64,000 nucleotides of DNA from Chthoniobacteraceae bacterium (GCA_044226525.1 JBGAGV010000006.1:157232-221231), one strand, 5' to 3'. Positions 16,232 to 33,692 are shown, counted from the first letter of the stretch. The notes: generated by a model from the letters alone, not told the origin. A program made the numbers and translations.

Positions 16232-16938
16232 GCGTGTTCCTCCAGGCGCACGCCGCCCACGAAGGGGTCGATGGCGTGGCGCGATTGCCACATTTTTCCT
16301 CCCTGCCGCAGGCGAAGGCGAACACGTTCACCTTCTTTCAGCTTTGGGAGAATCGCGTAAGCGGCACCAGGTTCCAACCCGAGGCTGGCGCGTTCGAAGT
16401 CCCGGAATTGACCAGTCTGCGAGATGACCTGAAATTCGCACCTGTCCCCCTGCGTTTCGTCATAGCGCGCCGCCAGGTCGTCCGGTTCGATGCGAACTCG
16501 CGCGGCTTTGCCGTAGTCCCGTTTCCACAGGGCGATGGTGTTCATGAGTTTGAGGATGACATCGATTTCGCGGCCGGGCTGGTAGGGCGTGTATTCGTTG
16601 CCTGCGCCGAGGCCACGCGCCCGGAGCAGTTCGTGCAGGACGCGCATGGTCGGTTTTCTCAGGCCTTCGGCATACTGAAACTCGCTCAGGACGAAGGCGG
16701 GATCCGCGATGTCGCCGGCGTCGTTGGCTTGCGGGGTCACCAAGGCGATCAAACCGTCCGCATCCTCGATTCGCTTTTTCAGCGCGTCATCGAGCGGGCG
16801 ACCGCCGACATCGACGCCGTCGAGCACGCGCAAGCCCATCGCTTCGATTGTTCGAACGACGAATTTGCGTAACCGTTCGAGTTCGTTCTCGTGGTCTGGG
16901 TGAGGGCGGTAGGTGTAGGAAAGGAACAGCTTCTCCAT
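16228..16938 (-). CDS. TIR-like domain protein with uncharacterised C-terminal domain
   Basis: MEKLFLSYTYRPHPDHENELERLRKFVVRTIEAMGLRVLDGVDVGGRPLDDALKKRIEDADGLIALVTPQ... fits the TIR 'FxSY...G...D...I..S...ivvls' pattern. The C-terminal ~110 aa (…CEFQVISQTGQFRDF…RVRLRLRQGG…) is unassigned. It sits 10 nt downstream of the protease stop. Confidence 0.6.
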   Translation of the reverse strand: MEKLFLSYTYRPHPDHENELERLRKFVVRTIEAMGLRVLDGVDVGGRPLDDALKKRIEDADGLIALVTPQANDAGDIADPAFVLSEFQYAEGLRKPTMRVLHELLRARGLGAGNEYTPYQPGREIDVILKLMNTIALWKRDYGKAARVRIEPDDLAARYDETQGDRCEFQVISQTGQFRDFERASLGLEPGAAYAILPKLKEGERVRLRLRQGGKMWQSRHAIDPFVGGVRLEEHA

Positions 16939-16948
16939 CGCGTTGCGG

Positions 16949-18556
16949 CTAAGTCTTTTTTTCCTTGATGATGGCTTGGATCCACAAGCCTTCATTTGCT
17001 CCGTAGGTGCCGGCCTCGCCGTTCAAACGGGAGATTCCTTCCTTGCCGCCGAGATGGTGCAGGCCGACGACGCTCCATTCTTCATTGAAGACCGGGCTGC
17101 CGGAACTGCCGCCCTCGGTGGGGGCTCGATAGTGCAGCCGGACGACTCCCTCGATGGCCGGCCGGCCTTTGGTCGGTCCCTCATGATCGAGTAATTCGTT
17201 GTCTTGCAGCGAAAACGCCAGTTCCCGGCCTCCGGGATGGCCGATGACATAAACGCGCTGCGCCGGCTGTCCACCTGCCAGCGGAAGAGTCTTCCCGGCG
17301 GAGAGCGCCCCAACCCCTTGGGGCTGCTTCTTGAGCTTGAGGATGCTCGCGTCGTGGCGGTCGGGAGGAGAACTCCACAACACCTTTTCCACCTCGATGC
17401 GCTGAACCGGCGACAACGCCTCGAACACCACCTCGGCCGAGTCGGCCTTGATCGCCTCGCCCGATCCTTCCGCATTGACGACGTGGTGGTTCGTCAGCAC
17501 GACTAGCTCATCCAGGTCGAGGCCGAGATCGTGAGCCCGCATGAGAAAGCCCGTGCCCTGCCGACGAATCCCGCGCAATTCGATGGCCACCACGGAACGA
17601 GCCTTTTCCAGCCCAAGCAGCATCCACCGATACGTTTTCGGTCCGTCCGCCCCGAGAATCGCCTCGAGTTGGCCGCGGGCTGGTGTTGGCGTGGCGGCGA
17701 GTTTTTTGAAGTCCGTTGGGGTCAGTTCGAGGGTGCCACCTGGCTTCCGCATCAGTTGCGCCTGCAGAATAGCCAGCAAGGGGCGTCCGTGCTTCTTGTC
17801 TTCGTCCAGCCCCCACACTTCGCAAAACTGCCGCAGGGTGCTGCCCAGGTGGAAGGCTTCCACCTTCGGATGGGTGACATACGTCCTCAAATGGCGCGCG
17901 ACATTTTTCCAGTCTCCGAGGGCCAGACATGCCTCGGCCATGGTGGCGGCGTGCCACTCGTCTTGCTGGGAGGAGGGAACTTTTTCGAGCGCTTCCAACA
18001 CCCGTCGGGCCAGGTCCACCGGATCGAGTTCCGGTGCGGCCGGGATCCCCAGACGTCGTGCCGCAGCGAGAACGGCCACCACGTTGATTCCCTGCCATGT
18101 CCACGATCCTCCCGCATCGACCACGGCCCGATAGGCGGAAACGGCTTGCTGGAGCGCGGTGCGCGCCGCCGGCGAATGTTTGTCTCGTGCGTCGAAAAAG
18201 ATTTGTTTGTGTGCGCGCCCGAGCAGCCCGGTCGCTTCTCCCCAAGCTGGAAATGATTTCGGCAGCCATCCCGTCAAGGTGCGCAAGAGATCGATCGCCG
18301 CCGTCGCTTTACCAGTTTCGATCAAGGCCTGCGCATACCAGCACCGCACGACCGCATCCTCGGGCGCGTGCCGGCCCGCGGCCTCGGCGAGGCGCCCCAG
18401 CATGGCGAACTCCCGCATCCCTCGCAATTTTTTGGCAGTGGAGCCGGCGGCATAGAGGTCTTCATGGCTGGGGGTGCCACGCAAACGATCCAGGCATTCT
18501 TCCGCGGCGCGCAACAGGGCGGCGCGCGGATCCTCGGGATTCGCTGGCTGGCTCAT
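16949..18556 (-). CDS. Helical-repeat (TPR-like) N-terminal domain fused to C-terminal trypsin-like (S1) serine peptidase
   Basis: The C-terminus has ...VVLTNHHVV (His)...GGSSGSPVF (catalytic Ser, GxSGSP)...VVGLHHLGG. The N-terminal ~330 aa are alpha-helical and Ala/Leu-rich. The start ATG at 18556..18554 overlaps the stop of the upstream hydrolase (ATGA). Confidence 0.7.
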   Translation of the reverse strand: MSQPANPEDPRAALLRAAEECLDRLRGTPSHEDLYAAGSTAKKLRGMREFAMLGRLAEAAGRHAPEDAVVRCWYAQALIETGKATAAIDLLRTLTGWLPKSFPAWGEATGLLGRAHKQIFFDARDKHSPAARTALQQAVSAYRAVVDAGGSWTWQGINVVAVLAAARRLGIPAAPELDPVDLARRVLEALEKVPSSQQDEWHAATMAEACLALGDWKNVARHLRTYVTHPKVEAFHLGSTLRQFCEVWGLDEDKKHGRPLLAILQAQLMRKPGGTLELTPTDFKKLAATPTPARGQLEAILGADGPKTYRWMLLGLEKARSVVAIELRGIRRQGTGFLMRAHDLGLDLDELVVLTNHHVVNAEGSGEAIKADSAEVVFEALSPVQRIEVEKVLWSSPPDRHDASILKLKKQPQGVGALSAGKTLPLAGGQPAQRVYVIGHPGGRELAFSLQDNELLDHEGPTKGRPAIEGVVRLHYRAPTEGGSSGSPVFNEEWSVVGLHHLGGKEGISRLNGEAGTYGANEGLWIQAIIKEKKT

Positions 18557-19697: not shown

Positions 19698-22600
19698 GTG
19701 CGGCGGATGTTCCGTCGCCTCCCCGCCTTCCGGCTTTTTTGCCTGTCCGGATTTTTCGCTGCTGCCCACGCATTCAGCCAGCAACCGCTGGCGCTGAGTT
19801 CGGCGGCACGATCGCAGATCGAACTCTTGAAGGCGGAGAAGGCCGAGCGCTCGCCGGAGCAACGCAAGATGGATTCGCGCCTCGTGCACCTCGTCAAAAA
19901 GCAACGAGGCGAACAGTTCGGCGCGGCGCTCTCCGCATTTGAGGCGAACATCAAGCCCGCGGCAGCAGGTGGGGAGTTGGTCGATATCGAGGGCACGGTC
20001 ACGGATGCATTGCTCGCGGGCTTGCACGCGGCCGGAGCGGAGATCGTGGCGAGTGTGCCGCGTTTTGGTGCGGTGCGGGCGCGGGTGCCGTGGGGCGAAC
20101 TCGAAGGCCTGGCGGCGCGGGCGGAGGTGAAGTTCATCAAGCCCGCCGCCCTGGCGCGAACGCGGGCGGGCTTGCAGACCAGTGCGGGTGATTTCACCCA
20201 CGCCGCGAATACCGCGCGGGCGAACTTTCAGGCGACGGGCCGCGGAGTGAAGCTCGGCGTATTGTCGAACAGTGTGGATTACCTGGCGAATGTGCAGGCC
20301 ACCGGCGATCTCGACGAGGTCACGGTGCTGCCGGGACAGGATGGCGTGGGTTACACCGGCGGTTCGCTGCCGAGCGAAGGCACGGCGATGCTGGAGATCG
20401 TGCACGACCTCGCGCCGGACACGGAGCTGTTCTTCGCGTCGGCATTCATCAGCGAAGCGCAGTTCGCACAGAACATCCTCGATCTGCGCAAGGCCGGTTG
20501 CGATATCATCGTGGACGACGTCTTCTACCTCGACGAGTCGCCGTTCATGGACGGGCCCGTGGCACAAGCGGTGGATGCAGTCGTGGCGGACGGTGCGCTT
20601 TACTTCAGCTCGGCGGGGAACGATGGAAACAAGAACGACGACACATCGGGGGTGTGGGAGGGCGATTTCAACGATGGCGGCGCGGCGAGCGCCCCGCTGA
20701 CTGCCAGCGGTCGCGTGCATCGCTTTGGCGTGGACAACTTTAACACCATCGTCGGTGGCAGCGATGCGGTGACGTTGTTCTGGGCCGACCCCTACGGTGC
20801 TTCAAGCAACGACTACGATCTCTACGTGCTCGATGCGACGGGGACGACGGTCCTCGCGTCATCCACGAATTTCCAGACAGGCTCGGAAGACCCGATCGAA
20901 TTTGTGCAATCGCCGGGCGCGGGAAGCCGGTTGGTGATCGTGAAAGCCGACGATGCGCAGCCGCGCTTTTTGCATCTCCAAAACTACAGCGGGCGTCTTT
21001 CGGTCAGCACGGCGGGGTCGTGTGCCGGACATGCCGCGGCCGCCGGTGCGCTGGCCGTGGCGGCGGTGAACGCGGCGACGTCGAGCCCGAATCCATTTGC
21101 CGGCGGCGCGGCGAACCCGATCGAGCAGTTCAGCAGCGATGGTCCGCGGCGCGTGTTTTACAATCACGACGGAACGCCCATCACGCCGGGGAACTTCGGC
21201 GTGACCGGCGGCAGCCTGCGGCAGAAGCCGGACATCGCCGCTGCGGATGGCGTAGCGACTTCCACCCCGAACTTCAGCGCGTTTTTTGGCACCTCGGCCG
21301 CCGCGCCGCATGCGGGGGCGGTCGCTGCGCTCTTGTGGAGCTACAACCGGGCGCTCACCCCGGCGCAGGTGCGGTCCGCACTCCTCAGCACCGCGCTCGA
21401 TATCGAAGGCGCTGGAATCGATCGGGATTCGGGGGCGGGCATCGTGATGGCGCCCGCAGCGATTCAAGCCGTCGATCCCGGACCGATCATCAGCTTCGTA
21501 GGTGCCGCCGTGGCGACGGAATCGTTTGCCCCTCCGAACTCGGCGGCCGATCCGGGGGAGACCGTCACGGTTTCGTTTACGCTGCAAAATGTCGGCGGTG
21601 CCGCCGGGGACATCACGGCCACGCTGCTGCCGGTGAACGGAATCGCGGCACCGAGTGGTCCGCAAAGTTACGGCACGCTCACCGCGGGAGGGGGACAGGC
21701 GGTGCGTGATTTCACCTTCACGGCCAACGGCGCGGGCGGTGGCACCTTGAATGCCACATTTGCCCTCCAGAGCGGCTCGACCCCGCTCGGCAATATCGTC
21801 GCCCCAATCGTCCTCGGTCCGGCGCAACCGGGCGCCGATCTCAATGTGCTCGTGTCGCCAGCGGGGCCGCTCAGCGTCGGCGATGCCGTCACGTTCACGG
21901 TGCAGGTCTTCAACAATGGTGGCACCCAGGCCGATGGAGTGACGCTCGATACGACGTTGCCCGGCGCGTTCATTCCGTTCGATGGGAATATTTCACAGGG
22001 CACTGGTTTCTTCGACGGTCAGCTCGTCTCCATCAGCTACGGTTCGATCCCTGCGGGCAGTTCGGCGACGCTCACGCTCGATTGCCAGGTGAAGAGCGCG
22101 GGCAGTCCGGTGGTGACTTTTACGAGTGGGTTGCAAGGGCTGGACAACGATCCCTCGAATAACACCGGCAGCGCCACCGTGGTGGTCGGTCGCCCCAATC
22201 TCACGCCCGCGCCGTTGATTCTCTCCACGGTTGCCGGCACCGACACCGACGCGGCGACGATCAATGCGACCCAGTCGGGTTTCGTGGATGTTGCGATGAA
22301 CAACGGCGGCAACGGGCCGGCGAGTCAGGCGCTTACCACGGAGCTTTATCTCGACGGCGTCCTGCAGCGGACCTTTACGCAGATGCTGCCAGTCGCGCCG
22401 GGCGCCGAGGCGCGGAATCTCGACGTGCCACTCGGCCTGTTGAGCGTGGGACAGCACACGCTCCGCGTGCGCGTGGACGCGGGCACCTCGGTGCCGGAAT
22501 CGGACGAGGCCGACAACGAAATCGTGCGCACGTTTACCGTCCTGCCGGGGCCGTCGCCGAATCTCGCGCCGGGCACGATTGCGGTCTCCAACACGACGGG

Positions 22601-24932
22601 GACGACGACCGACACGCCGGTCTTTCAAGTCACGGATTCGGTGTTCGTTGATTTTTCTGCGGTCAACGAAGGGCAGTTGGTCACCGGCACCGCGAGCACG
22701 GCGGATGTATTCCTCGACAACGTGCTCGTCTCACAGTCGCCCATCTCCGCGACGCTCGGAGTCGGGCAGACTGCGAGCGTGCTGGATCTTCCGCTCGGAT
22801 CGTTGGCTTCGGGTTCGCACACGATCCGCGTGGTGCTCGATTCGGGCAACGTGCTGGCTGAGTCGAACGAGACCGATAACGAGTTCACGAAGACGTTCAC
22901 GGTGAATGCCGCGCCGACGATCTCAGGTCTCGGCAATGTGAGGATCAATGAAGATAGCTCGACGGGGGCGCTGTCTTTCACTGTCGGTGACGTGGAAACA
23001 CCCGTGGCGGGCCTTACCGTGAACGCATCGTCGTCGGTGCCGTCGTTTGGCGTCGTCGTCGGAGGAAGCGGAGCGAACCGCACGGTGACGGTCACTCCTC
23101 CAGCCAATGCCAACGGAGCCGCGACGATCACCGTGACGGTGCAGGACGGCACCGGCGGACAGACGAGCGGCAGCTTCGTCGTTACGGTCGATCCGGTGAA
23201 CGATGCGCCGAGCTTCACCGCCAGTGGCAACGTGTCGGTGGCGGAAGATTCCGGCCCTGCGACGATCAATGCGTGGGCGACGAACATCAGCCCCGGACCG
23301 GCGGATGAGACTGCGCAAAGTGTCAGCTTCGCTCTCACGAACGATGCCCCGGCGTTGTTCTCCACCCAGCCCGCCTTGAGCTCAAGCGGGGTGCTCACGT
23401 TTACGCCTGCGCCGAATGCGAATGGGCAGTCGATGGTGACGGTTGTCGCGCACGACTCCGGCGGGCTCGAAGGCAGCTCGCCGATTACCTTCACCCTCAC
23501 GGTGACGTCAGCCAACGATCTGCCATCCTTTGCCCTTGGCGGTAACCTCGCGGTGGCTCAGGACGCAGGTCCGCAGACGATCGCCAACTTCGCGTCGAGC
23601 ATCAGCTCCGGCCCAGCCGATGAAGCGGCCCAGACGATCACATTCGCCGTGCAGGCTGTTGGCACGGGGCTCTTCTCCGTGGCCCCGGCGATTGCACCGA
23701 ATGGCACGCTCACGTTCACCCCGTCACCCACCGCCAGCGGCAAAACGAATGTCACCGTCACCGCGACCGATTCGGGCGGAGCGACGAGTGCCGTGCAAAC
23801 CTTCCAGATCGCGGTGACTTCGTTTGCCGGAAAAACGGGAAGCTACGCCGGGCTGATTGGGCCGGCGAGTCCAGTCGGGAGTTCCGTCGATCAGGTGGGG
23901 ATGATCAGCCTGCTCATTCGTCCGAAGGGCGATCTCTCCGGCCGTCTTGTGCTGGGTGGCGTGCGCTATTCCTTCAAGGGGTTCGTGCTCAACGATGGCC
24001 GCGTGCGTTTTGGCGGGGCGCAGAACACCGCCACCCTGGAGTTGCGCCGCCGAGGGAAGCCGACGCTCACACTGGCACTCAATCTGGATGTGACCGGGCC
24101 GACCGGCACGCTCGCCGGCACGGTCGCGCAGGGCGCCGGTTCCTTCGCTGTCGTGACGGCGGAGCGTGCGGGCTACGACGCGCGCACACACCCGGCGCTG
24201 CCTCCCCTCGTGGGAAATTACACCGCGCTCCTGGAGCATCGGACGGGCACGAACAACGGCGTGCCCCGTGCCTCCTATCCCCAAGGCGATGGTCCGGCGA
24301 CCTTTCGGATTAAAGCAAACGGTGTGATGTCGCTACGCGGAGCCCTGGCCGATGGAAGCGCGATCAGCGCGGCGGCGCCGCTTTCGGAAACGAACCTTTG
24401 GCCGTTCTATGCAGCCACGAATCGTGGGCGTGGCGCCGTGAGTGGCTTGGTCGATCTGGGGCTCGGCGGTAGCACATCCGCGGGCCTGCTCTGGCACAAA
24501 CCGGCGAATGCCCGCGCCATGCAATATCCCACGGGCTGGCCGGGCGGGATCATCATCGATCTGGTCGGCTCACCGCTCACCGTCACGAGCGGGCAGAGCG
24601 TTCTGCCGGGTCTTGGCACTGCGGATACCGATGGTAACGCTGAGTTTCGCGGGATGGACGGTGGACTCGCCTCGACTTTCCTGAAAGGGCTCTCCATCGA
24701 CTCAAAAGATCGCGTCCGCGTGATCAGTCCCACGGCCGACGCCTTCCGCCTCTCGCTCAAGCACAAGACCGGCCTGGTCAGCGGCCGATTCAGGCCCGTG
24801 GGCGAGGACCGTGTGCTCTCCTTCCGCGGAACCGTGCTCCAGTCCGAATCGCGGGTGAGTGGCTTCTTCATCGGTCGCAAGGAAGTCGGCAGCATCGGGG
24901 CCGTGGCCGACGATACCCCCGGCGTCCCGTAG
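19698..24932 (+). CDS. Giant secreted S8 subtilisin-family peptidase with multiple Ig-like/CARDB/cadherin-like repeat domains (1744 aa)
   Basis: Signal peptide MRRMFRRLPAFRLFCLSGFFAAAHA. S8 motifs are present: Asp region, SAGNDGN, GTSAAAPHAGAVAALL (Ser). Repeated ~95-aa modules (…VTVDPVNDAPSFTASGN…, …TVTSANDLPSFALGGN…) look like cadherin/Big-type repeats. CARDB-like modules are also present (…PNLAPGTIAV…ADNE…). Confidence 0.8.
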   Translation: MRRMFRRLPAFRLFCLSGFFAAAHAFSQQPLALSSAARSQIELLKAEKAERSPEQRKMDSRLVHLVKKQRGEQFGAALSAFEANIKPAAAGGELVDIEGTVTDALLAGLHAAGAEIVASVPRFGAVRARVPWGELEGLAARAEVKFIKPAALARTRAGLQTSAGDFTHAANTARANFQATGRGVKLGVLSNSVDYLANVQATGDLDEVTVLPGQDGVGYTGGSLPSEGTAMLEIVHDLAPDTELFFASAFISEAQFAQNILDLRKAGCDIIVDDVFYLDESPFMDGPVAQAVDAVVADGALYFSSAGNDGNKNDDTSGVWEGDFNDGGAASAPLTASGRVHRFGVDNFNTIVGGSDAVTLFWADPYGASSNDYDLYVLDATGTTVLASSTNFQTGSEDPIEFVQSPGAGSRLVIVKADDAQPRFLHLQNYSGRLSVSTAGSCAGHAAAAGALAVAAVNAATSSPNPFAGGAANPIEQFSSDGPRRVFYNHDGTPITPGNFGVTGGSLRQKPDIAAADGVATSTPNFSAFFGTSAAAPHAGAVAALLWSYNRALTPAQVRSALLSTALDIEGAGIDRDSGAGIVMAPAAIQAVDPGPIISFVGAAVATESFAPPNSAADPGETVTVSFTLQNVGGAAGDITATLLPVNGIAAPSGPQSYGTLTAGGGQAVRDFTFTANGAGGGTLNATFALQSGSTPLGNIVAPIVLGPAQPGADLNVLVSPAGPLSVGDAVTFTVQVFNNGGTQADGVTLDTTLPGAFIPFDGNISQGTGFFDGQLVSISYGSIPAGSSATLTLDCQVKSAGSPVVTFTSGLQGLDNDPSNNTGSATVVVGRPNLTPAPLILSTVAGTDTDAATINATQSGFVDVAMNNGGNGPASQALTTELYLDGVLQRTFTQMLPVAPGAEARNLDVPLGLLSVGQHTLRVRVDAGTSVPESDEADNEIVRTFTVLPGPSPNLAPGTIAVSNTTGTTTDTPVFQVTDSVFVDFSAVNEGQLVTGTASTADVFLDNVLVSQSPISATLGVGQTASVLDLPLGSLASGSHTIRVVLDSGNVLAESNETDNEFTKTFTVNAAPTISGLGNVRINEDSSTGALSFTVGDVETPVAGLTVNASSSVPSFGVVVGGSGANRTVTVTPPANANGAATITVTVQDGTGGQTSGSFVVTVDPVNDAPSFTASGNVSVAEDSGPATINAWATNISPGPADETAQSVSFALTNDAPALFSTQPALSSSGVLTFTPAPNANGQSMVTVVAHDSGGLEGSSPITFTLTVTSANDLPSFALGGNLAVAQDAGPQTIANFASSISSGPADEAAQTITFAVQAVGTGLFSVAPAIAPNGTLTFTPSPTASGKTNVTVTATDSGGATSAVQTFQIAVTSFAGKTGSYAGLIGPASPVGSSVDQVGMISLLIRPKGDLSGRLVLGGVRYSFKGFVLNDGRVRFGGAQNTATLELRRRGKPTLTLALNLDVTGPTGTLAGTVAQGAGSFAVVTAERAGYDARTHPALPPLVGNYTALLEHRTGTNNGVPRASYPQGDGPATFRIKANGVMSLRGALADGSAISAAAPLSETNLWPFYAATNRGRGAVSGLVDLGLGGSTSAGLLWHKPANARAMQYPTGWPGGIIIDLVGSPLTVTSGQSVLPGLGTADTDGNAEFRGMDGGLASTFLKGLSIDSKDRVRVISPTADAFRLSLKHKTGLVSGRFRPVGEDRVLSFRGTVLQSESRVSGFFIGRKEVGSIGAVADDTPGVP

Positions 24933-24938
24933 CCCCGC

Positions 24939-25300
24939 TTACTCCGGTCGCAGTTCGAAACGTCCGGTCGCCGCCGGACCGGTGAAGAAACCGGTCGCGC
25001 GATTGGTCTGTTGATAGATCGCACCGCTGAGCCGCGAGCGCTTGCCGGATGCCGGATGGATGAATGAACCGGTGATGACTCCGTTGCGGTGATTGATCTT
25101 AAGCGTGAGCCCGTCGGTCGAGGCGTCGTCGAGGGTGACGCGATCGGCTGTGCTGACCGCAATGCGATGACTGACGAGGGGAGTGCTGCCGCCATCGCGC
25201 AGATCAAATTGCGCATGGCCGGTGGGATAGCTCAGCGTCGCGTTCCCCTTCGGTGAAGTGAAAGCGAAGCGAACAGAACGAGACTGATGACACCAGGGAC
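24939..25300 (-). CDS. Hypothetical protein; C-terminal region resembles the C-terminus of the convergent S8 peptidase; 5' end uncertain (possible frameshift)
   Basis: ORF 24939..25553 is in frame. The plausible part begins around [29 protein letters not shown]...[50 protein letters not shown]. The upstream part of that ORF is low-complexity (RRRPRRPRP) and spans a heptamer tandem repeat. Confidence 0.3.
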
Positions 25301-25556: not shown

Positions 25557-25793
25557 TCATAGGAGCTTCGCCGCCTCCTCGATCTGGCGGAGGACTTCGG
25601 GGGTGAGGCCGGTGGGTTTGGGCGGAGGTTGATGGGCGCGTTCGTAGCGCAGCTTGGAATCCTCGAACCGGTCGCGGGCGAGTTGGAGGGCCTTCTCGCG
25701 CAGGGCGACCGTTTGAGTCCATTGACGTTCCCGCTGGCGCTGGCGCCAGGTGTCCCGGGCGGATTGCAGATCGAGCTGGCGCTGGCGGTCCAC
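25557..25793 (-). CDS. Hypothetical small coiled-coil protein
   Basis: 78 aa, Arg/Gln-rich predicted coiled coil (…RQRQRERQWTQTVALREKALQLARDRFEDSKLRYE…). It abuts the next minus-strand ORF with a 3-nt gap. Coding status is uncertain in GC-rich DNA. Confidence 0.25.
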   Translation of the reverse strand: MDRQRQLDLQSARDTWRQRQRERQWTQTVALREKALQLARDRFEDSKLRYERAHQPPPKPTGLTPEVLRQIEEAAKLL

Positions 25794-25906
25794 GGCGGCG
25801 GTGGCCAGGGCGAGCAGACGCGCGTTGCGCTCGGCCAGGGCGAGATCGAGGAGGAGCTTCTGGGCACAGGCGTGGGTGCGGGCGATTTCGGCGGGGTCGA
25901 GGTCGA

Positions 25907-26308
25907 TCAGGCTTCGCTATCGCGGGCCTGCTCGAGGAGTTCGCGCAGTTGGAACCACGCGCAGAACCGGCGCAGGGAAGTGATCGCGACCTCGATGCCT
26001 TCGGTGGCGAGTTGTTCGCGGGCAAAGGCGACCCCGCCGCGGCCCGAGCCGGACCCGTCGCGCCCAGCTTCGCACCAGGCCATGATTTCTTCCTGTCTGG
26101 CGCGAGGCAGATTTTTGAGCACACAATCGGAGCGGACCTTGCGGCCTGTGAGCAGCCCGATACCGCCGGCGTCCGCCGCCAGCCCAAGCGGATGCGGTGG
26201 GGCGAGCGGATCGGGGGGATCTTTTTTTACCGAACGTTTCGCGCGCTGCGGAGTGGAGTGAGTTGCCGCGCCTTCCGAAGGACGACCAGACCGCGTGAGT
26301 GTTTTCAT
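25907..26308 (-). CDS. Hypothetical protein
   Basis: 133-aa ORF with no recognisable domain. It is the first of three tandem minus-strand ORFs between the S8 peptidase gene and repeat copy A. Confidence 0.25.
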   Translation of the reverse strand: MKTLTRSGRPSEGAATHSTPQRAKRSVKKDPPDPLAPPHPLGLAADAGGIGLLTGRKVRSDCVLKNLPRARQEEIMAWCEAGRDGSGSGRGGVAFAREQLATEGIEVAITSLRRFCAWFQLRELLEQARDSEA

Positions 26309-26433
26309 AGACGCCTAGTTTCGCCTCCGACCCGAATTCACGCGAACCGTCCATTCCCTCCATTCCGTGGGTTCCGGTTTCATTTTTGGTTAACCGGGGG
26401 CGGTATCGTAACCGCTCAGGCGCCAGGGGGGGA

Positions 26434-26578
26434 GGCGCGCTTCCGGCCAGGCGAACCTCAGCTTCGCTCGGTGGGGCGTTGGCGAGGAGAAATGCGTGTG
26501 CTGCGCAGCATGAGGTTGCGCGATCCGATTCTGGAGTTTGTCTCACCTGTCAATGTCAAGAGTTGCCCCCTGCCGCGG
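26434..26578. repeat. Copy A of a ~145-bp intergenic repeat (about 85% identical to copy B)
   Basis: gcttccggccaggcgaacctcagcttcgctcggtggggcgttggcgaggagaaatgcgtgtgctgcgcagcatgaggttgcgcgatccgattctggagtttgtctcacctgtcaatgtcaagagttgccccctgccgcg aligns with 27596-27738. It ends 71 nt upstream of the DUF4203 gene. Confidence 0.6.
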
Positions 26579-26648
26579 ATTGCGCCGGTAAGAAACAACC
26601 TGAACGGAGGACGGCATCCGCTCCGTTCGGGGCGAACGATTTGCCTAT

Positions 26649-27185
26649 ATGGAAATCCCCGTCCTGCTCCTTGGCCTTGCCCTGCTGGTCGCGGGCCGCC
26701 GTGTGTTCTGGCTGTTTGTGGGAGGCGCAGGGTTTCTCTATGGCTGGAGCATTGCCCCGATTTTGGTGCCCGACGGGTCGGCTGGGGCGTTGCTCCTCAT
26801 CGCCGTGGCAGCCGGGGTGATCGGCGCCGTGCTCGCCATTTTCGCCCAGAAGCTGGCCGTTGGATTCGCCGGGGGCATGATGGGCGGCTACCTGGCGTGG
26901 GCCTTTGTCCACGGCACCACGTGGGAGCCTCATCATTTCACCGAACTGTCCTTCCTCGTCGGCTTCGTGATCGGCGCGGTGCTCGTCCTCGTCCTGTTTG
27001 ACTGGGCGCTCATCATTTGGTCGTCCATCGCGGGCAGCGCGTTGATCCTTCAGACCTTTCATCCCGCGCCCTTGCTCAGGGGCCTTCTGTTTCTCGCACT
27101 GGCAGCCCTCGGCATCATCTTCCAGGCGAATCTGCTGGCCCGGGAGCGCCAGCGAAGGATCCTGCACAGCTACGACGCCCCTTGA
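26649..27185 (+). CDS. DUF4203-like polytopic membrane protein
   Basis: MEIPVLLLGLALLVAGRRVFWLFVGGAGFLYGWSIAPILV... has 5-6 Gly/Ala-rich TM helices. Confidence 0.6.
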   Translation: MEIPVLLLGLALLVAGRRVFWLFVGGAGFLYGWSIAPILVPDGSAGALLLIAVAAGVIGAVLAIFAQKLAVGFAGGMMGGYLAWAFVHGTTWEPHHFTELSFLVGFVIGAVLVLVLFDWALIIWSSIAGSALILQTFHPAPLLRGLLFLALAALGIIFQANLLARERQRRILHSYDAP

Positions 27186-27197
27186 ACGGCTGAAGCC

Positions 27198-27566
27198 ATG
27201 CCCGCCTCGTTCACCATCGACACCGACACCGCCTGGGTGCTCACCACGGCCACCGGCATTCTTTCGTATGCGGATGTCGTGGAGCTGATCCGGGCCAAGG
27301 TGAAGGCCGGAGTGATGGCTCACGACGAATTGGTCGATGCCCGGAACGTCACGCTCGACCTGTCCTCGGCCGACCTGCCCGCCATCGTCCGCGAGGTGCG
27401 CACAGCGCTCGGGGATCGTGCCCCGGGCCGGACCGCGATCGTCACGAATAGCGGTTTCCTATATGGACTCGCCCGTGCCTACGCCGATCTAATCAAGGAC
27501 ACCCAGCCGACCTTCGAGGTATTCACCGATATGCTAGAGGCCCGGCAGTGGCTTGCGAAGCGGTAA
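27198..27566 (+). CDS. Hypothetical protein (STAS/SpoIIAA-like fold suspected)
   Basis: 122 aa, MPASFTIDTDTAWVLTTATGILSYADVVELIRAKVKAG... It starts 13 nt after the DUF4203 gene stop, so the two are probably co-transcribed. Confidence 0.5.
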   Translation: MPASFTIDTDTAWVLTTATGILSYADVVELIRAKVKAGVMAHDELVDARNVTLDLSSADLPAIVREVRTALGDRAPGRTAIVTNSGFLYGLARAYADLIKDTQPTFEVFTDMLEARQWLAKR

Positions 27567-27595
27567 GAGACGCGGGATCGGAACCACCAAGGGGC

Positions 27596-27738
27596 AAGCT
27601 TCCGGTCACACGAAGCTCAGCTTCGATCCCTGGGGCGTTGGCGAGGCGAATGCGTGTGCTGCGCGGCACGAGGTTGGCGATCCGATTTGGAGTTTGTATC
27701 ACCTGTCAATGTGAAGAGTCGACCCCTCCCGCGCGCGA
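27596..27738. repeat. Copy B of the ~145-bp intergenic repeat
   Basis: gcttccggtcacacgaagctcagcttcgatccctggggcgttggcgaggcgaatgcgtgtgctgcgcggcacgaggttggcgatccgatttggagtttgtatcacctgtcaatgtgaagagtcgacccctcccgcgcg contains a perfect palindrome, cgaagctcagcttcg. It lies at the boundary of the AT-richer island and upstream of the 27906 gene. Confidence 0.6.
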
Positions 27739-27905
27739 CAGACCGTTCAAGGCGGGCTTCTTCAAGAGCGCTAAGCTTTTGCGATTGAACGCTGGATAGA
27801 CCATGTGTAGAAAATTCAGATCGCGATCAATCCCAAAATTTGTTTTCAGCCTGTGCTCCTCTGTCGCTCAGTTAAATTGACTGATCTAGCTTCGCCTTAT
27901 AAGGT

Positions 27906-28307
27906 ATGAAACTACATACCGGAAGGACTCTCTTGGCGGGCGCATTTCAAGCACATAGGTTGGCGTCGGCTGGTGGAGACATCCCAGGTGGTTCAGGTGC
28001 ACTTCTGCTCTGCTATTCTGTAGAGTGCGGGCTGAAACTCGTTCTGCTTATTCAGCGAAACCTGCACAGCACGGAGCGGCTTTCGGATGATGATCTAACG
28101 CACGATTTGGATGAACTCAGCACAAAGGTTGGGTGCCGACATCGCATTGGAATAACGGATGTAGCCCAGCCCGCGAGCCTGCGCCTCGAATCTCGGCGAT
28201 TACATGAACTTTTTCGATATGGAGGGAAGCTAAGTAACAATAATTTACAAGCGTTGCGAAGTAGGCTGCAGGAAATTGTATTTTGGATCGAGGAGCAACT
28301 CGAATGA
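27906..28307 (+). CDS. Hypothetical 133-aa protein, translationally coupled to the downstream dual-NTPase gene
   Basis: MKLHTGRTLLAGAFQAHRLASAGGDIPGGSGALLLCYSVECGLKLVLLIQRN... The stop TGA (28305-28307) overlaps the ATG at 28304 of the next gene (ATGA). It lies in the AT-richer island. Confidence 0.5.
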   Translation: MKLHTGRTLLAGAFQAHRLASAGGDIPGGSGALLLCYSVECGLKLVLLIQRNLHSTERLSDDDLTHDLDELSTKVGCRHRIGITDVAQPASLRLESRRLHELFRYGGKLSNNNLQALRSRLQEIVFWIEEQLE

Positions 28308-30907
28308 AGGAGTTGTTTACATGGCGAGACGTTCAGGATCAGGTTGACGGCTCTAACGAAAAGCCGTGGATTCGGGCGAGTGCCGACACCACCACCCTCC
28401 GAATCGAATGCCTCCCTGGACAAGCGGCGGAGTGTAGCCGCGTTTTGACAGATATTATTCCTTCGTTCGAGGCGGAGACGAATTCAGTCCGCCTCGCTGG
28501 ATTGCCCTCGAATCAGCGGAAACTCATTGTGGAGATTATCGAGGATGCTGATGTTGCCCCGGTGGTCACGATTGAGAGACCGCTATGGACCAATCGGACC
28601 GCTGAGTTGAAGCCGCCAGCAGCCCCGCTGAAATCAAAAGTCTGTGCTTTCTATTCATACAAAGGAGGCGTGGGGCGAACGACCGCTGTCGTTGCGATGC
28701 TGGCGGAAATTTTGCATCAACATCCTACCAGCCGCGTCTTGGTGATCGATGCGGATTTTGAGGCTCCTGGTCTAACCTGGCTTCTTAAGCCACCCACTGA
28801 GGATGGCTTTTCTTATATCGACGCACTTTCGTTGCTTCATGATGCCGACGATTGGAAACGCGATGCGCTACCTCTCATTGCCGATTGCGTCCGACTGGGT
28901 AGCGCAACTCTCGAGATACCGGATGGGCGTCGCGATTTTTGGTTTCTTCCGGCGGTTCGATCGGTGGACCAACTTTTTAAAATGCCGATTCGTCCAGAAC
29001 AAGTGGTGCGTGCACGAGGACGAGCATGGTTGATGGCTGACTTTTTATTCGAACTTTCGCAAACGCTGAAATTTGATGTAGTGTTGGTGGACATGCGGAC
29101 GGGGATAACAGAGTTTTCATCACCGCTTTTGCTGGACCCTCGTGTTGAAAAGATTTTGGTGACCTCCTGCAATGCTCAATCGGTGCGGGGGACAGTAGAG
29201 ACTTTACGGCGGGTGCAAAAGGCTCATCCGTCTAGTGAAAAGCCGGAGGTCATTGTTAGCCTTGTGCCTCCCGATTCGGGAGAGTTGTTTGAAAAAATTA
29301 GCACTGACATAATTGACGTATTCAATGATCAGCCGCCAACGGGAGGGGATTCGGTCGGCTCGCAGCTTGGAATTCACCGGTCTGATTTTGCGCAGGAGCT
29401 TCTGCATTTCGAAAGCTTGGACGACTTTGCGTTAAAACGGCTTTCCGGAACTCAGCTTGGAAAAAAGGTTGCCCCCGATTTAGTTGAGCGCCTTGTCGAT
29501 ATTTCTGATTCAGTGCCTGCGCGTGAAGACGCCGGAGTTTCGGCCGCGATAACGCCAAAGGATGTCGCAGAGGCAGCGAAAAAATTGGAGTTTGCCGAAC
29601 AAAATTCTGAAGTGGGGTTGTTACCGATCCCCGCTTTGCGAAAGCTTTTAGAGGTGCCGACCGGGAGACTTCCGATAGCTAACGTGATTGGTGCAAAGGG
29701 GGCGGGTAAAACATTTGCCTGGGGACAGTTGGTTCTTGCGAAACGTCTCTTGAAGTTTTCTCAACTCGTCTCGACGACTCATGAAGTGCGGGACGCGCAA
29801 ATATTTCCACTTTTAGCTCCCACTTCATTAAGCCCGCATTTGGCGGATCAAGTGAGGGCACTTGAGGAGCAGGTGGTAGGGAGTCGTGAATCGAGGCTGA
29901 CGCGTTTTGCGCTCAAGGATCAAGTGGAGCGGTCTGATACCTCATGTGAGCCATTTGATTTTTGGTTGTGTGCTATAGCCGATCGTTTGGGTTTGCCCGT
30001 TCCAGCGGGGAACAATGCTCGTGAAAAGCTTCGATCAGTCTTTTCTCAGGTTGAGCCCATTCTTCTGATTGTGGACGGTCTAGAAGATGCACTTCAGGTA
30101 ACCGTTGGGACGGGATTAACTGAACCGCAAAAGAAAATCCTCCGCTACCTGTTGCAGGATTTTCCTAGCATCCTTCGGGAATCCGGAGTTGATAATATTG
30201 GCTTGGTCGTTTTTGTGAGACGAGACTTGGCTGCATTGGCTATCAGGCAAAACTTTGGGCAGTTCGAGGCTCTTCACCGCGACACGACGTTGACATGGAC
30301 GCCGGCAGACGCATTGCGCTTACCGCTCTGGTTGCTGGCGAGACTTGGGTGGGACACAAAACTTCCGAGTGTCGCGACTGCGTCATACGATGAATTGCGT
30401 AAAGCCTTGTTTGCATTTTGGGGCGAGAAGATGGGGGGGAAGCGCGAGGCTTTTACGGACGAATGGGTAATCGCGACCCTTTCAGACTTTAATCTCGTTT
30501 TGCAGGCGAGAGATATGACGAGGTTAGTGCGCTACGCTGCGGAGAATCACGGGATTCGATCATTTCCAATTCCGCATACAGCCCTGAGGAACGCAGTGCC
30601 ATCTGTGTCGCAAGAGAAAATTGCCGAACTGGGAAAAGAAGTTGCCGCGTTGGAATCAATATTTTCGCGTCTCCAAGGGCATGCCATTAATTTGAAAGTG
30701 ATTCCTTTTTCTCCAACGGATGTAGGTCTATCGGCAGAGGAGGTCGTATTTATGCAGCAGCTAGGGTTGCTCGCCCCTTCCGACGAACCGGATAAGTTGT
30801 TCATGCCGGAAATTATTCGGCATGGCTTGGGCTTTAAACTAGCCAACAGGGGCCGTGCTCGCGTTCTTGCGCTTTATCGAGAGGCGCGGCAGCGGCGACA
30901 ATCATAA
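28304..30907 (+). CDS. 874-aa two-NTPase protein: ParA/MinD-type (SIMIBI) P-loop domain with Arg-substituted Walker A + C-terminal NACHT/STAND-like NTPase
   Basis: The N-terminal half has VCAFYSYKGGVGRTTAVVAMLAEIL...RVLVIDADFEAPGL...FDVVLVDMRTGITEF, a ParA/MinD deviant Walker A with GRT in place of GKT. The C-terminal half has LPIANVIGAKGAGKTFAWGQLVL (Walker A) ... EPILLIVDGLEDAL (Walker B of hhhhDGhDE type, as in NACHT/STAND). The first ~100 aa are unassigned. It lies in a visibly lower-GC region. Confidence 0.7.
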   Translation: MKELFTWRDVQDQVDGSNEKPWIRASADTTTLRIECLPGQAAECSRVLTDIIPSFEAETNSVRLAGLPSNQRKLIVEIIEDADVAPVVTIERPLWTNRTAELKPPAAPLKSKVCAFYSYKGGVGRTTAVVAMLAEILHQHPTSRVLVIDADFEAPGLTWLLKPPTEDGFSYIDALSLLHDADDWKRDALPLIADCVRLGSATLEIPDGRRDFWFLPAVRSVDQLFKMPIRPEQVVRARGRAWLMADFLFELSQTLKFDVVLVDMRTGITEFSSPLLLDPRVEKILVTSCNAQSVRGTVETLRRVQKAHPSSEKPEVIVSLVPPDSGELFEKISTDIIDVFNDQPPTGGDSVGSQLGIHRSDFAQELLHFESLDDFALKRLSGTQLGKKVAPDLVERLVDISDSVPAREDAGVSAAITPKDVAEAAKKLEFAEQNSEVGLLPIPALRKLLEVPTGRLPIANVIGAKGAGKTFAWGQLVLAKRLLKFSQLVSTTHEVRDAQIFPLLAPTSLSPHLADQVRALEEQVVGSRESRLTRFALKDQVERSDTSCEPFDFWLCAIADRLGLPVPAGNNAREKLRSVFSQVEPILLIVDGLEDALQVTVGTGLTEPQKKILRYLLQDFPSILRESGVDNIGLVVFVRRDLAALAIRQNFGQFEALHRDTTLTWTPADALRLPLWLLARLGWDTKLPSVATASYDELRKALFAFWGEKMGGKREAFTDEWVIATLSDFNLVLQARDMTRLVRYAAENHGIRSFPIPHTALRNAVPSVSQEKIAELGKEVAALESIFSRLQGHAINLKVIPFSPTDVGLSAEEVVFMQQLGLLAPSDEPDKLFMPEIIRHGLGFKLANRGRARVLALYREARQRRQS

Positions 30908-30974
30908 CATTTCCGCTTGCGCCGCAGCGGATGGGACGCTGCGGCGGGGATCGAAGCGGGAGCTTCGAACTACT

Positions 30975-33026
30975 TTAGGCGGCTAGCTTATCGATCGGCG
31001 TGGGTTTCGGCGGCTCGGGGTCGGACTTTACTTCCTGCCAGGTGGTTAAGACTTGGAGGATCGCCTGGAAGAGGCCGACTTCGGCGCCGGCTTTGCCTTC
31101 CTGGCCGCCGAGCAAGACGACGCGCTCGGGGACGAGGGGTTGTTCGCTTTGGGCGAGTTGTTGGGCGACGAGGTTGATGGCGTAGAGACGCGGGTCGGTG
31201 AAGGCTTCGACCTTCTGCCGGCTGACTTCGGCTTCGGCCTGGCCGACCTGGGCGACGCGGGCGGCTTCACCCTGGCCTTCGAGTTCGGTGGCGCGGGCGC
31301 GGCCTTCGGCGAGGGTGACTTCGCGTTTGGCGAGGCGCTCGGCTTCGGCGAGTTGGGCGGCACCGCGGTTGCCCGCGATCTCGATCTCGACGCGGGTCTG
31401 GGTGAGCTGCGTCTGGCGCTCGGCTTCGGCCTGGGCGTGGTTCAGCTGTTTCTGCTGCATGGCGGCTTCCTGCTGCTTCGCGAAGGTTTCTTTTTGCTCC
31501 TCGGCGAGGCGGCGCTGGCGGAGCTGATCGAACAGGCGATCGATCGGGTCTTCGGCGCCGGGTTTGAGCACGCCGGCTTCGGGGCGGCCGATAAGGACGG
31601 CGACGCAGTTGATATCGAACTCCTGGAAACGCTTGCCGAGTTGCTCGGTGGCGTGGCGTTGGATTTCTTCACGACGAGTGAGCAGGTCGAGCATGTGGCT
31701 GCTCTGCGCCACGTCGCGGAAATACGCGGTGAGGATCGGGTCGAGCGTCTGCGTGATGAGGCGGCGCACGTCGCCGAACCGCTGCACGACGCGCGGGGCT
31801 TTTTCGTAGTCGATGTGGAGCACGAGCGACAGCGGGAGCAGGGGCTCGTAACCGTCGGCGGTGATGAGCGGGATGCTGGTGAGATGCTCGTCGTAACGAT
31901 GCGCCTCGACCTGGCCGCTGATCCAGCGGAGGACGAAGTTCACCGTGGGCACGTGCTCGACTTTGAGCGCGTAGGGATTGAGCGCGTATTTGCCGGGCGC
32001 GAGGGCTTCGCGCCAGACACCGCGGCGACCGGCTTCGACCTGCATGCCGTAGCGGAATTGCGCGCCGGTGACGTCTTCACCGCTCGCGCCGTAGTAACTG
32101 ATGACGACGCCGACGTAGCCGATGGGGATGAGGGTTTTCGGTTGCAGCTCGACGCTCGCGAACCAGCGGTTCACGAAATAGGTGCCGTCGGTAAGGACTT
32201 GCAGTTGTTTACCGCGGCGACCGCCCAGGGCGAGGAATCCCTCGGGATCCTGGAAGTAGTTGTGGCCGCCATCGGTCGGCGTGCCGACCTGCGGGGCGAT
32301 GAATTCGCCGGGCTCGAGCGTGGGGCCATCGTGAATGGTCACGACGCCGATGAGATCGTGCGGCGAGAGTTTGCTCGCGTCGGCCTGCACAGCGGGGTCG
32401 CCGCTGCGTTGCACGTAGTAGGCGCTGCCGATGAGGACGGGCTCGAAGCCATTCGCTCCATTGAGCTCTTCCTGCCAGGTGGCGCATTGTTCGCGTTCGC
32501 GGCGATCGACCGGGCCGGCATGGACGCCGGTTTCGGTGATGACGACGAAGAGCGCGGTATTGATGGCATAGACGCCTTCACGCAGGATGAGGCGCTGGCG
32601 GCCGCGCTGGCCGTTATTTTCCAGGAAGCCGACGGCGTCCTGGAACGAGTTGCAGGTCACCACGGCGCCGAGGGTCTGGGTCGGGCCGAGCGGCAGGCCG
32701 TCGCGGGCATAGACGTAACCGATGCGGCCTTCCGCGACGGTGACGAGCGGGACGGTGTGCACGCGGAACATCCAGAAGGGATATCCGAGATGGAGGCCAC
32801 CGCGCAGGACGCGAGCCTGGAAGCCCGCTTCACCTGCGAGGGCGATGATGCGTCCATGCGCGAGCGAGCCGCGATGGGACCAGAGTTTTTCCACGATGCC
32901 CACGCGATCGTGCGGGATATACCGCAGACCGAGGAGGAAGTTGAGCAGCAGGAGGGTAAGGGCCAGGCCCGCGATGATTTTCACGAGCAGGAACCCGACG
33001 GTGAACAGCGTGATGATGCCGTTCAT
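30975..33026 (-). CDS. Flotillin-family SPFH/band-7 protein (YqiK/FloA-like)
   Basis: N-terminal TM segment (MNGIITLFTVGFLLVKIIAGLALTLLLL) followed by an SPFH domain. The C-terminus is a long Ala/Glu/Gln-rich coiled coil (…AEAERQTQLTQTRVEIEIAGNRGAAQLAEAERLAKREVTLAEGRARATELEGQGEAARVAQVGQAEAEV…), as in flotillins. Confidence 0.85.
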   Translation of the reverse strand: MNGIITLFTVGFLLVKIIAGLALTLLLLNFLLGLRYIPHDRVGIVEKLWSHRGSLAHGRIIALAGEAGFQARVLRGGLHLGYPFWMFRVHTVPLVTVAEGRIGYVYARDGLPLGPTQTLGAVVTCNSFQDAVGFLENNGQRGRQRLILREGVYAINTALFVVITETGVHAGPVDRREREQCATWQEELNGANGFEPVLIGSAYYVQRSGDPAVQADASKLSPHDLIGVVTIHDGPTLEPGEFIAPQVGTPTDGGHNYFQDPEGFLALGGRRGKQLQVLTDGTYFVNRWFASVELQPKTLIPIGYVGVVISYYGASGEDVTGAQFRYGMQVEAGRRGVWREALAPGKYALNPYALKVEHVPTVNFVLRWISGQVEAHRYDEHLTSIPLITADGYEPLLPLSLVLHIDYEKAPRVVQRFGDVRRLITQTLDPILTAYFRDVAQSSHMLDLLTRREEIQRHATEQLGKRFQEFDINCVAVLIGRPEAGVLKPGAEDPIDRLFDQLRQRRLAEEQKETFAKQQEAAMQQKQLNHAQAEAERQTQLTQTRVEIEIAGNRGAAQLAEAERLAKREVTLAEGRARATELEGQGEAARVAQVGQAEAEVSRQKVEAFTDPRLYAINLVAQQLAQSEQPLVPERVVLLGGQEGKAGAEVGLFQAILQVLTTWQEVKSDPEPPKPTPIDKLAA

Positions 33027-33692
33027 GATGGATGTGTTCTCTTTCTATATGTCGGCTTTGCGAACACTGCGGTCCGGGCTCGGGTGGGCTGGAGCGGCGT
33101 GGCGGCCTTGGGCCGTTCACGTTTGGTGCTGCCGCAGGACGGCAGGGCTCCCGGCATCCGGGCACGGGTGTGCGCGAAGCTGGCTATTTTCGAGAGGATG
33201 GAGCGCCGCTTTGGCGCCCGGTGAGTTTGCTCACCGAGGGTTGCCGCGGCTCCCTGCCTCTGGGTGTTGAGCGGACGGAGTTAGCTGTCGGGCTTGGGCC
33301 ACTCAGTGCCCCCGGCGCCGCAGTGCGCCGTTCGCCCCAGTGGCCGCTCTTCTAGGAAAGAAGGGCGGCGGAATTTGGGTCCCCCGTTGATCGGGCCACT
33401 TGGCTCGATCATTACGCTGGCAAAGAACCGCTATTAGTATGACACAAGCGATGGCGGGGTCAACTCGGCCCGGCCTTCGGGTGGGCGTTCTGAGAGGCTA
33501 AGGTGCTGCCCAGTCGAACTTTACAGCAAAACCCCGAAAAGGATGGCATGCCGTCGAAATCGCCACAAAAAGGCGTTTGGGCAGGAGATTCATTGTTGAC
33601 CCCGAGCTGGGAAACAGGTCTCCTCGCCCGACTAAATTGCAGTGGAGGCGCTTCATCGTGCTCATGAAGCGCTGCACAGCCCATTAACTTCC

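Follow-up and report, generated by a model that had tools for sequence, protein, structure and literature searches.

Direct repeats that flank genes are known from several systems. The repeats of integron cassettes, such as the VCRs of Vibrio, are ~120-150 bp long, are 80-90% alike, and lie in direct orientation beside cargo with little upstream DNA. MITEs and MITE-flanked units have short non-coding repeats that flank passenger genes. Where CIMEs share one att site, attL- and attR-type repeats alternate with cargoes that lack an integrase, in the order repeat, cargo 1, repeat, cargo 2. Lastly, a Campbell-type or microhomology-mediated duplicative insertion leaves direct, host-like copies that exactly bracket a segment found elsewhere in relatives. 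Such a segment can do without a recombinase of its own, and the copies are able to excise it.

Here we describe a repeat that resembles each of these in some respects. It lies in a 64-kb stretch of DNA from a Chthoniobacteraceae bacterium (the whole stretch is referred to as the window), where its two copies bracket a pair of genes. Most likely, the repeat is an ordinary scar of recombination that is specific to this lineage. In the literature, we found nothing relevant on Chthoniobacter repeats, on KGGVGR, or on a c-di-AMP riboswitch together with SPFH.

The two copies and their surroundings

The core of copy A is at 26434-26578 and the core of copy B is at 27593-27738 (both on the plus strand; 63% and 62% GC). 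The initial annotation described two copies of ~145 bp that are ~85% identical, and blastn agrees (87% identity over 139 nt, 26439-26577 versus 27598-27733, E = 6e-42). The copies are direct repeats, with three collinear segments (26434-26491/27593-27650, 26491-26518/27649-27676, and 26532-26577/27688-27733) that are 83-93% identical and are spaced 1156-1159 nt apart. If the cores are aligned globally, there are 124 matches, 17 substitutions, and 3 internal single-base indels. To the left, there is a weak extension in a MAFFT alignment (16 of 21 positions are identical between 26400-26420 in A and 27572-27592 in B), followed by a 13-nt insertion in A. To the right, in a profile alignment, the similarity reaches ~26584 in A and ~27744 in B. 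When the window is compared to itself, this pair is the sole repeat at E < 1e-6, and each of the conserved blocks of the repeat occurs exactly twice in the window.

Both copies are intergenic and, as had been proposed, they share an orientation and lie upstream of plus-strand genes, at 26649 and 27906. Copy A ends ~65-70 nt before the ATG of the DUF4203 gene (26649). Copy B begins 6 nt past the 122-aa gene's stop codon, and it ends where the GC content drops, 168 nt before the ATG at 27906. The 15-nt palindrome CGAAGCTCAGCTTCG is indeed perfect in copy B (27611-27625), and copy A (26452-26466) departs from it by a single mismatch. The initial annotation also placed copy B at a compositional transition, and the step is sharp: GC falls from 62% to 36% within 100 nt (in 50-nt windows, 62% at 27700, 52% at 27750, and 36% at 27800). 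Overall, GC is 62-63% in the repeat, 62% in the host, 64% in the two-gene module, 51% in the island, and 45% in the 160 nt after copy B.

The left neighbor is a Mu Gp27-like (DUF3486-type) gene on the minus strand (25557-26308), which is 125 nt from copy A and is transcribed away from it. This gene is frameshifted near 25910: in the window, one half is out of frame with the other, and in homologs of 175-249 aa the halves are fused. A viral relative has a match to Pfam's Phage_Mu_Gp27 and is encoded near a Mu portal gene. Other large NCBI contigs encode at least 10 distinct versions of the Gp27-like protein, which are 62-96% identical (nine of them are at least 83% identical), versus 1-2 NCBI versions for each of the single-copy neighbor genes. 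Also, a 126-nt solo remnant of the gene lies in an unrelated context in another locus (L019). Because of the many versions and the remnant, the gene appears to be multicopy. Farther to the left is the C-terminal remnant of a surface protein.

The right neighbor is a low-GC island (27745-30919, plus strand; 51% GC versus 62%). It includes a gene for a 133-aa protein (27906-28307, plus strand) and a gene for an 874-aa protein (28283-30907, plus strand). The longer protein is a KGGVGR-type AAA ATPase with a Sll1717-family P-loop domain, and it matches PDC-M28B from PADLOC; a viral scan found no relative of it. The island is foreign, horizontally acquired, and defence-like.

After the island comes the 3' end of a convergent SPFH gene (30920-30967, minus strand), with two hairpins. 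The hairpin at 30920-30946 is the gene's native terminator, which is conserved, with compensatory changes in its stem, in two related loci (L015 and L016). In these two loci and in L014, homology to the window resumes at the SPFH stop codon (30975/6), or at ~30920 if the terminator hairpin is allowed for; in L015 and L016, synteny is lost on either side of the SPFH gene. The L014 contig stops 28 nt past the SPFH stop codon. The other hairpin (30947-30967) is absent from the relatives, which have a shorter and different spacer, and it resembles the hairpin of copy B together with ATCCC. The motif CGAAGC-N(3-4)-GCTTCG followed by ATCCC occurs twice in the window versus 0.09 times expected by chance: one occurrence is in copy B (27611-27630), and the other, which is inverted, separates the SPFH stop codon from the native terminator (30947-30967). 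We considered whether these hairpins could be the terminal inverted repeats of the island and rejected this idea, as the right-hand hairpin is outside the native SPFH terminator and not at the island's edge.

Relatives of the bracketed gene pair

The module between the copies (26585-27571, plus strand) comprises 64 nt of native leader, a DUF4203/TM7S3_TM198 gene (26649-27185, plus strand; Pfam PF13886), and a gene for a 122-aa protein (27198-27566, plus strand). These two genes are the only ones in the bracketed segment, which has no integrase gene. The gene pair also occurs in related loci: in L012/L013, from activated sludge (94% nucleotide identity, matching the window only at 26585-27567), in L001 (83% identity, only at 26587-27574), and in L002 (70% identity, only at 26637-27541). 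Translated searches of these loci against the window found nothing else in common. The limits of the relatives' matches are within ~6 nt of where copy A stops on its right side and of where copy B starts on its left side.

In L001 and in L012/L013, a divergently transcribed bactofilin gene lies before the operon, from which ~127 nt of intergenic DNA separate it, and in L001, a SWIB-domain gene lies 3' of the operon. Neither locus has the repeat at either end of the operon, nor any other flanking direct repeats. Since L012 is nearer to the window than L001 is, yet has the same context as L001, the bactofilin context is ancestral. The arrangement in the window is derived, either by relocation of the gene pair or by gain of an extra copy of it. 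The L012/L013 contigs stop 3 nt past the module.

Both genes are under purifying selection (versus L012, the DUF4203 gene has a dN/dS of ~0.08 and the 122-aa gene one of ~0.11). Copy A now lies upstream of genes on which purifying selection continues to act. The divergence between the two copies (Jukes-Cantor K = 0.131) is below the synonymous divergence between the window and L012 (dS = 0.164 for the DUF4203 gene and 0.230 for the 122-aa gene). This implies that a duplication after the split from L012, followed by neutral decay, is sufficient to explain the copies, and that no constraint is needed. If the copies were identical at the time of the event and have drifted neutrally, then the event is ~0.6-0.8 times as old as the split from L012.

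The pattern of differences between the copies also looks random. The initial annotation held that the substitutions are concentrated in discrete positions, which we did not find: the longest identical run between the copies is 16 nt, versus a mean of 22.8 nt if the differences are placed at random (P = 0.93), and the variance in run lengths is not beyond chance either (P = 0.80). The core of the repeat is slightly better conserved than its edges (9 differences in 92 columns versus 11 in 52; P = 0.08, Fisher exact test).

Regulatory, coding, and mobile readings of the repeat

The initial annotation described the repeat as structured and suggested that it might be a cis-regulatory leader, a riboswitch-like RNA, or a small RNA. 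Rfam has no match at the repeat when the whole window is searched with the gathering thresholds, and at E ≤ 10, the hits within 26300-27950 are at chance level (17-19 bits, versus gathering scores of 39-70). Elsewhere in the window, Rfam identifies one tRNA and one c-di-AMP riboswitch. Both strands of both copies are predicted to fold less stably than dinucleotide shuffles do, with z scores of +0.96 to +1.56 for RNA and +0.66 to +1.78 with DNA parameters. In the consensus fold of the plus strand, none of the 36 predicted pairs has changed on both sides, and 3 have one-sided changes between G-C and G-U. On the minus strand, 2 of 31 pairs have changed on both sides, in a weak fold; with two sequences, this comparison has no statistical power. 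Thus, neither the proposed structure (z of +0.7 to +1.8, and no compensatory pair on the plus strand) nor the leader, riboswitch, or small RNA is upheld, and the repeat is also absent both 5' and 3' of the orthologous DUF4203 operons in L001, L002, and L012/L013.

More broadly, the repeat might be a functional cis-regulatory module, either a promoter or operator or else a 5' leader RNA, that selection maintains in front of two operons, the DUF4203 pair and the island genes. Both copies do lie in the same orientation upstream of plus-strand genes, but this would be automatic in a direct duplication. The somewhat better conservation of the core would fit a regulatory site, as would the near-palindrome GTGCTGCGC(A/G)GCA(T/C), where both substitutions preserve G-U or G-C pairing on the plus strand. 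Just 64 nt of native upstream DNA came along with the gene pair, on which purifying selection still acts, and its promoter may therefore be in copy A. However, a scan of 26100-28100 for sigma-70-like promoters found none, there is no Rfam family, and the folding is weaker than for shuffles on both strands, with no compensatory pair on the plus strand. The element is missing from orthologous operons that are 94%, 83%, and 70% identical, and the divergence between the copies can be explained without constraint. We consider a regulatory module to be rather improbable. Reading by eye, we also noticed a sigma-54-like promoter in TGGCGAGG(N)ATGC, which we rejected because its spacing differs by one base between the copies.

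Another suggestion was that the repeat is a remnant of a coding duplication. Inside the core, three 1-nt indels put the copies out of frame with each other, and the middle 12-13 residues are wholly different between them. A comparison of the translated repeat to 1.84 billion representative proteins yielded one compositional artefact and no relative. Given the three indels and the lack of a common reading frame across the core, the repeat is probably non-coding, and we rejected both a small conserved ORF and a coding remnant.

We searched for additional copies of the repeat in several ways. There are 2 copies in the 64-kb window and 0 in 19 related loci. A profile of the two copies, run with nhmmer --max against the window and ~170 kb of related loci (including L019), found just copies A and B. 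GTDB species representatives, metagenome contigs, and viral contigs were searched only with exact blocks of 19-20 nt. The pattern GTTGGCGAGGN{2,4}ATGCGTGTGC had 7 matches in the GTDB representatives, all of which were confined to the pattern itself, as expected by chance; the pattern AGTTTGTNTCACCTGTCAATG had 2 chance matches in the metagenome contigs; and two exact-block scans of the viral contigs had 0 matches. Using blastn, we found no match to the repeat in plasmids or phages.

We also looked for the defining features of mobile elements. For terminal inverted repeats, the first 30 nt of a copy and the reverse complement of the last 30 nt match at 10-14 of 30 positions in the best ungapped alignment (P = 0.17-0.94, from shuffles). 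The 12-nt flanks of either copy have no direct repeat in common that might be a target-site duplication. The integron attC core sites (RYYYAAC and GTTRRRY) are absent from either strand of either copy, and neither strand forms an end-to-end hairpin as single-stranded DNA. There is no tRNA or tmRNA in 25800-31200, none of the ORFs tested between 15.5 and 46 kb encodes an integrase or transposase domain, and a third copy of the repeat was not found after the island. With these features absent, we rejected the attC, MITE, and tRNA-att readings of the repeat. As far as these searches reach, the initial annotation's MITE-like or REP-like element is not supported, given the lack of terminal inverted repeats, of a target-site duplication, and of any extra copy in the collections we searched.

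A less typical mobile element might still account for the locus. The repeat could be a low-copy, non-autonomous mobile or dispersed element, with two copies that captured the gene pair in the manner of a composite transposon, or it could be the terminal or upstream part of a multicopy element that carries the Gp27-like gene, with copy B as a solo copy. Both copies have the same discrete ends, and their right ends abut different cargoes. The Gp27-like gene, from which copy A is 125 nt upstream, belongs to a family with at least 10 near-identical versions on other contigs, and the hairpin motif of the repeat appears again at 30947-30967. A remnant of the Gp27-like gene stands alone in L019. The window and the ~170 kb of related loci, L019 among them, have no third copy, and the exact-block scans of GTDB, the metagenomes, and the viral contigs gave chance matches only. 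Without terminal inverted repeats, target-site duplications, or a transposase or integrase domain in the neighboring ORFs that we tested, such an element is unlikely.

A more speculative variant is that the repeat is the conserved head of undescribed cargo units that accrete in tandem, at a hot spot beside the multicopy Gp27-like gene, where the head might be an attachment or packaging site or a promoter-bearing boundary. New cargo would join at the right end of the repeat, the island first and then the DUF4203 pair. The repeat would be recognized by the Gp27-like protein (which is small-terminase-like and DNA-binding) or by an unlinked recombinase. We consider this very improbable.

Possible origin by duplicative insertion

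The explanation that we favor is that the repeat is ordinary intergenic DNA of the host (~145-185 bp) that was duplicated by the recombination that placed the gene pair here. Our belief in this account is about evenly balanced against our doubts. The copies are in direct orientation and bracket the gene pair exactly, the relatives have the pair at another home locus and lack the repeat, the GC content of the repeat is host-like, and the divergence between the copies is low and free of any sign of constraint. We infer that a single event is responsible and that the copies have no sequence-specific function.

In this scenario, the gene pair would have been copied or moved from its ancestral site, between the bactofilin gene and the SWIB gene. 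The landing site would be a plastic region, prone to rearrangement and rich in conflict genes, between the multicopy Gp27-like gene and the defence-like island. One duplicative insertion would convert "X - repeat - Y" to "X - repeat - gene pair - repeat - Y", and this accounts for all four boundaries at once. There are three ways this might have happened. First, a circular fragment might have been inserted by a Campbell-type single crossover via a shared flank. Second, two alleles of a variable locus, with the same flank and different cargo, might have merged. Such a merger would account for the start of both cargoes at the repeat's right end, as well as for the 13% by which the copies already differ. 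Third, there might have been a microhomology-mediated template switch. There are short similarities of the type GCGG(T/G)ATCG at the junction of the module and copy B, which are too short to be evidence for a template switch. After the event, the copies would have drifted apart roughly neutrally.

The host-like GC, the plastic surroundings, and the fact that the contigs of relatives break at the junctions all count in favor of a duplicated flank. Several observations count against it. We did not find a relative with the pre-insertion allele, in which the repeat would occur once, with the island or other DNA after it. Our search of the source genome covered the window, and further copies may lie elsewhere, for example upstream of the other Gp27-like paralogs. 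What adjoins the repeat on its right differs between the copies (the gene pair after A, the island after B), so the repeat could have been a discrete unit that was active in the insertion, rather than a passive flank. The copy B-like hairpin at 30947-30967 is more than chance would predict (0.09 expected). Finally, there are more transversions (11) than transitions (6) among the substitutions between the copies, which is unusual for neutral decay, although the numbers are small.

A related possibility is that a 1.16-kb unit, comprising the repeat and the gene pair, was duplicated in tandem, and that the second gene pair was later replaced or deleted as the island arrived, which spared the first ~150 nt of the second unit. 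The direct orientation would be expected, the spacing of 1156-1159 nt equals the length of the repeat plus the module, copy B begins 6 nt past the end of the module, and the divergence between the copies fits a duplication in situ. But this scenario requires two independent breakpoints to fall within ~6 nt of each other (26584|26585 corresponds to ~27744), which we infer would happen by chance about 1 time in 100, and there is no remnant of a second module after copy B. We think that a tandem duplication is quite unlikely.

Returning to the duplicated flank, it is not far from what had been suggested before. Of the four candidates in the initial annotation, a recombination target that marks an insertion boundary comes closest, with the correction that the bracketed segment is the two-gene module and not the AT-rich island. 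It had also been anticipated that if there were just two copies, with no compensatory changes, then they would be a simple local duplication. Within the collections we searched, this is the outcome we favor.

The names given to homologs place the organism close to Chthoniobacter, within the Verrucomicrobiota. The rearrangement in its genome is recent and, in general terms, of little importance. It offers a clean, small-scale case of two chromosomal genes that were inserted again next to a defence island, between direct repeats through which they could be lost. It also illustrates that what looks like a conserved intergenic motif ahead of two operons can arise as a side effect of duplicative insertion. 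The repeat would be of greater interest if it accompanies the multicopy Gp27-like gene elsewhere in the genome.

How does this locus compare to the known systems? The ~145-bp direct repeats and the scant native DNA upstream of the cargo recall integron cassettes. Unlike attC sites, however, the copies have no R''/R' core sites and no hairpin in single-stranded DNA, there is no IntI-like gene, and there are just two copies. As with MITE-flanked units, a short non-coding repeat flanks passenger genes, but no terminal inverted repeats, target-site duplication, or additional copies were detected. The order of the locus is that of CIMEs at one att site, with cargoes that lack an integrase, and the second cargo is a foreign, defence-like island. 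In contrast to attL/attR and CIMEs, the target is neither a tRNA nor the 3' end of a gene, and there is no nearby integrase and no third repeat. Also, the DNA of cargo 1 is ordinary and chromosomal, and relatives have it at a conserved home locus. A Campbell-type or microhomology-mediated duplicative insertion differs from our locus in that its donor and pre-insertion allele are unseen here, and the 13% divergence between the copies implies either an old event or alleles that had already diverged. It is like our locus in that direct, host-like copies exactly bracket a segment that relatives have at another place, the segment can do without a recombinase of its own, and copies A and B could recombine and loop the gene pair out.

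The SPFH gene, its riboswitch and its 3′ hairpins

The gene that adjoins the right end of the low-GC island encodes a 683-aa SPFH/Band_7 (YqiK-like) protein (window 30975-33026, minus strand), and immediately 5′ of it is a c-di-AMP (ydaO-type) riboswitch (33255-33415, minus strand). This pairing is kept in four contigs from related genomes, while the remaining neighbours vary; the riboswitch is at 7396-7574 in L014, 512-679 in L015, 9694-9872 in L016, and 1000-1178 in L017. In the literature library that we searched, we found no paper that mentions "c-di-AMP riboswitch" together with SPFH.

The terminator hairpin of the SPFH gene is at 30920-30946. When compared to L015 and L016, its loop (TCCCATC) is retained and the changes in its stem are compensatory. 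Between the SPFH stop codon and the terminator, the window has an additional hairpin (30947-30967), which the relatives lack. This extra hairpin is similar to the hairpin-plus-ATCCC within copy B of the repeat (27611-27630), and these are the only two occurrences of the motif in the window (0.09 expected).

The low-GC island and nearby contig ends

The island (27745-30919, 51% GC) contains two genes. One encodes a 133-aa protein with a weak match to phrog_5737. The other encodes an 874-aa protein that combines a KGGVGR-motif AAA ATPase domain with a Sll1717-family P-loop domain and that matches the PADLOC candidate system PDC-M28B. The island is probably a defence module that was gained horizontally.

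In close relatives, contigs end at two junctions near the island, one at the end of the gene pair and one at the SPFH stop. Two contigs stop 3 nt past the 122-aa gene that precedes copy B (L012, 10919-10921; L013, 3713-3715), and L014 stops 28 nt past the SPFH stop (9752-9780). The contigs come from independent assemblies. Their ends coincide with the window's synteny breaks, which suggests strain-level variation or repeats at these junctions in the relatives' populations.

Genes to the left of the repeat

A frameshift near 25910 breaks a Mu Gp27-like (DUF3486-type) gene (25557-26308, minus strand) in two. Other large NCBI contigs contain at least 10 distinct versions of this protein (62-96% identical, with 9 at 83% or above), and the adjoining single-copy genes have just 1-2 NCBI versions each. 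An isolated 126-nt 3′ remnant of the gene is present in another related contig (L019, 9964-10089). The gene looks like a member of a multicopy family, and the family is possibly mobile.

Farther left, the end of a minus-strand ORF (24939-25300) is similar to the C-terminus of a convergent 1744-aa subtilase/CARDB protein (19698-24932). The ORF looks like what a truncation has left of a surface-protein paralogue.

Two minus-strand genes that lie some 8-11 kb to the left of the repeat encode a protein with prokaryotic-YEATS and TIR domains (15527-16291) and a protein with TPR-S and trypsin-like peptidase domains (16949-18556). Both domain pairings are of a kind typically seen in defence or conflict systems.
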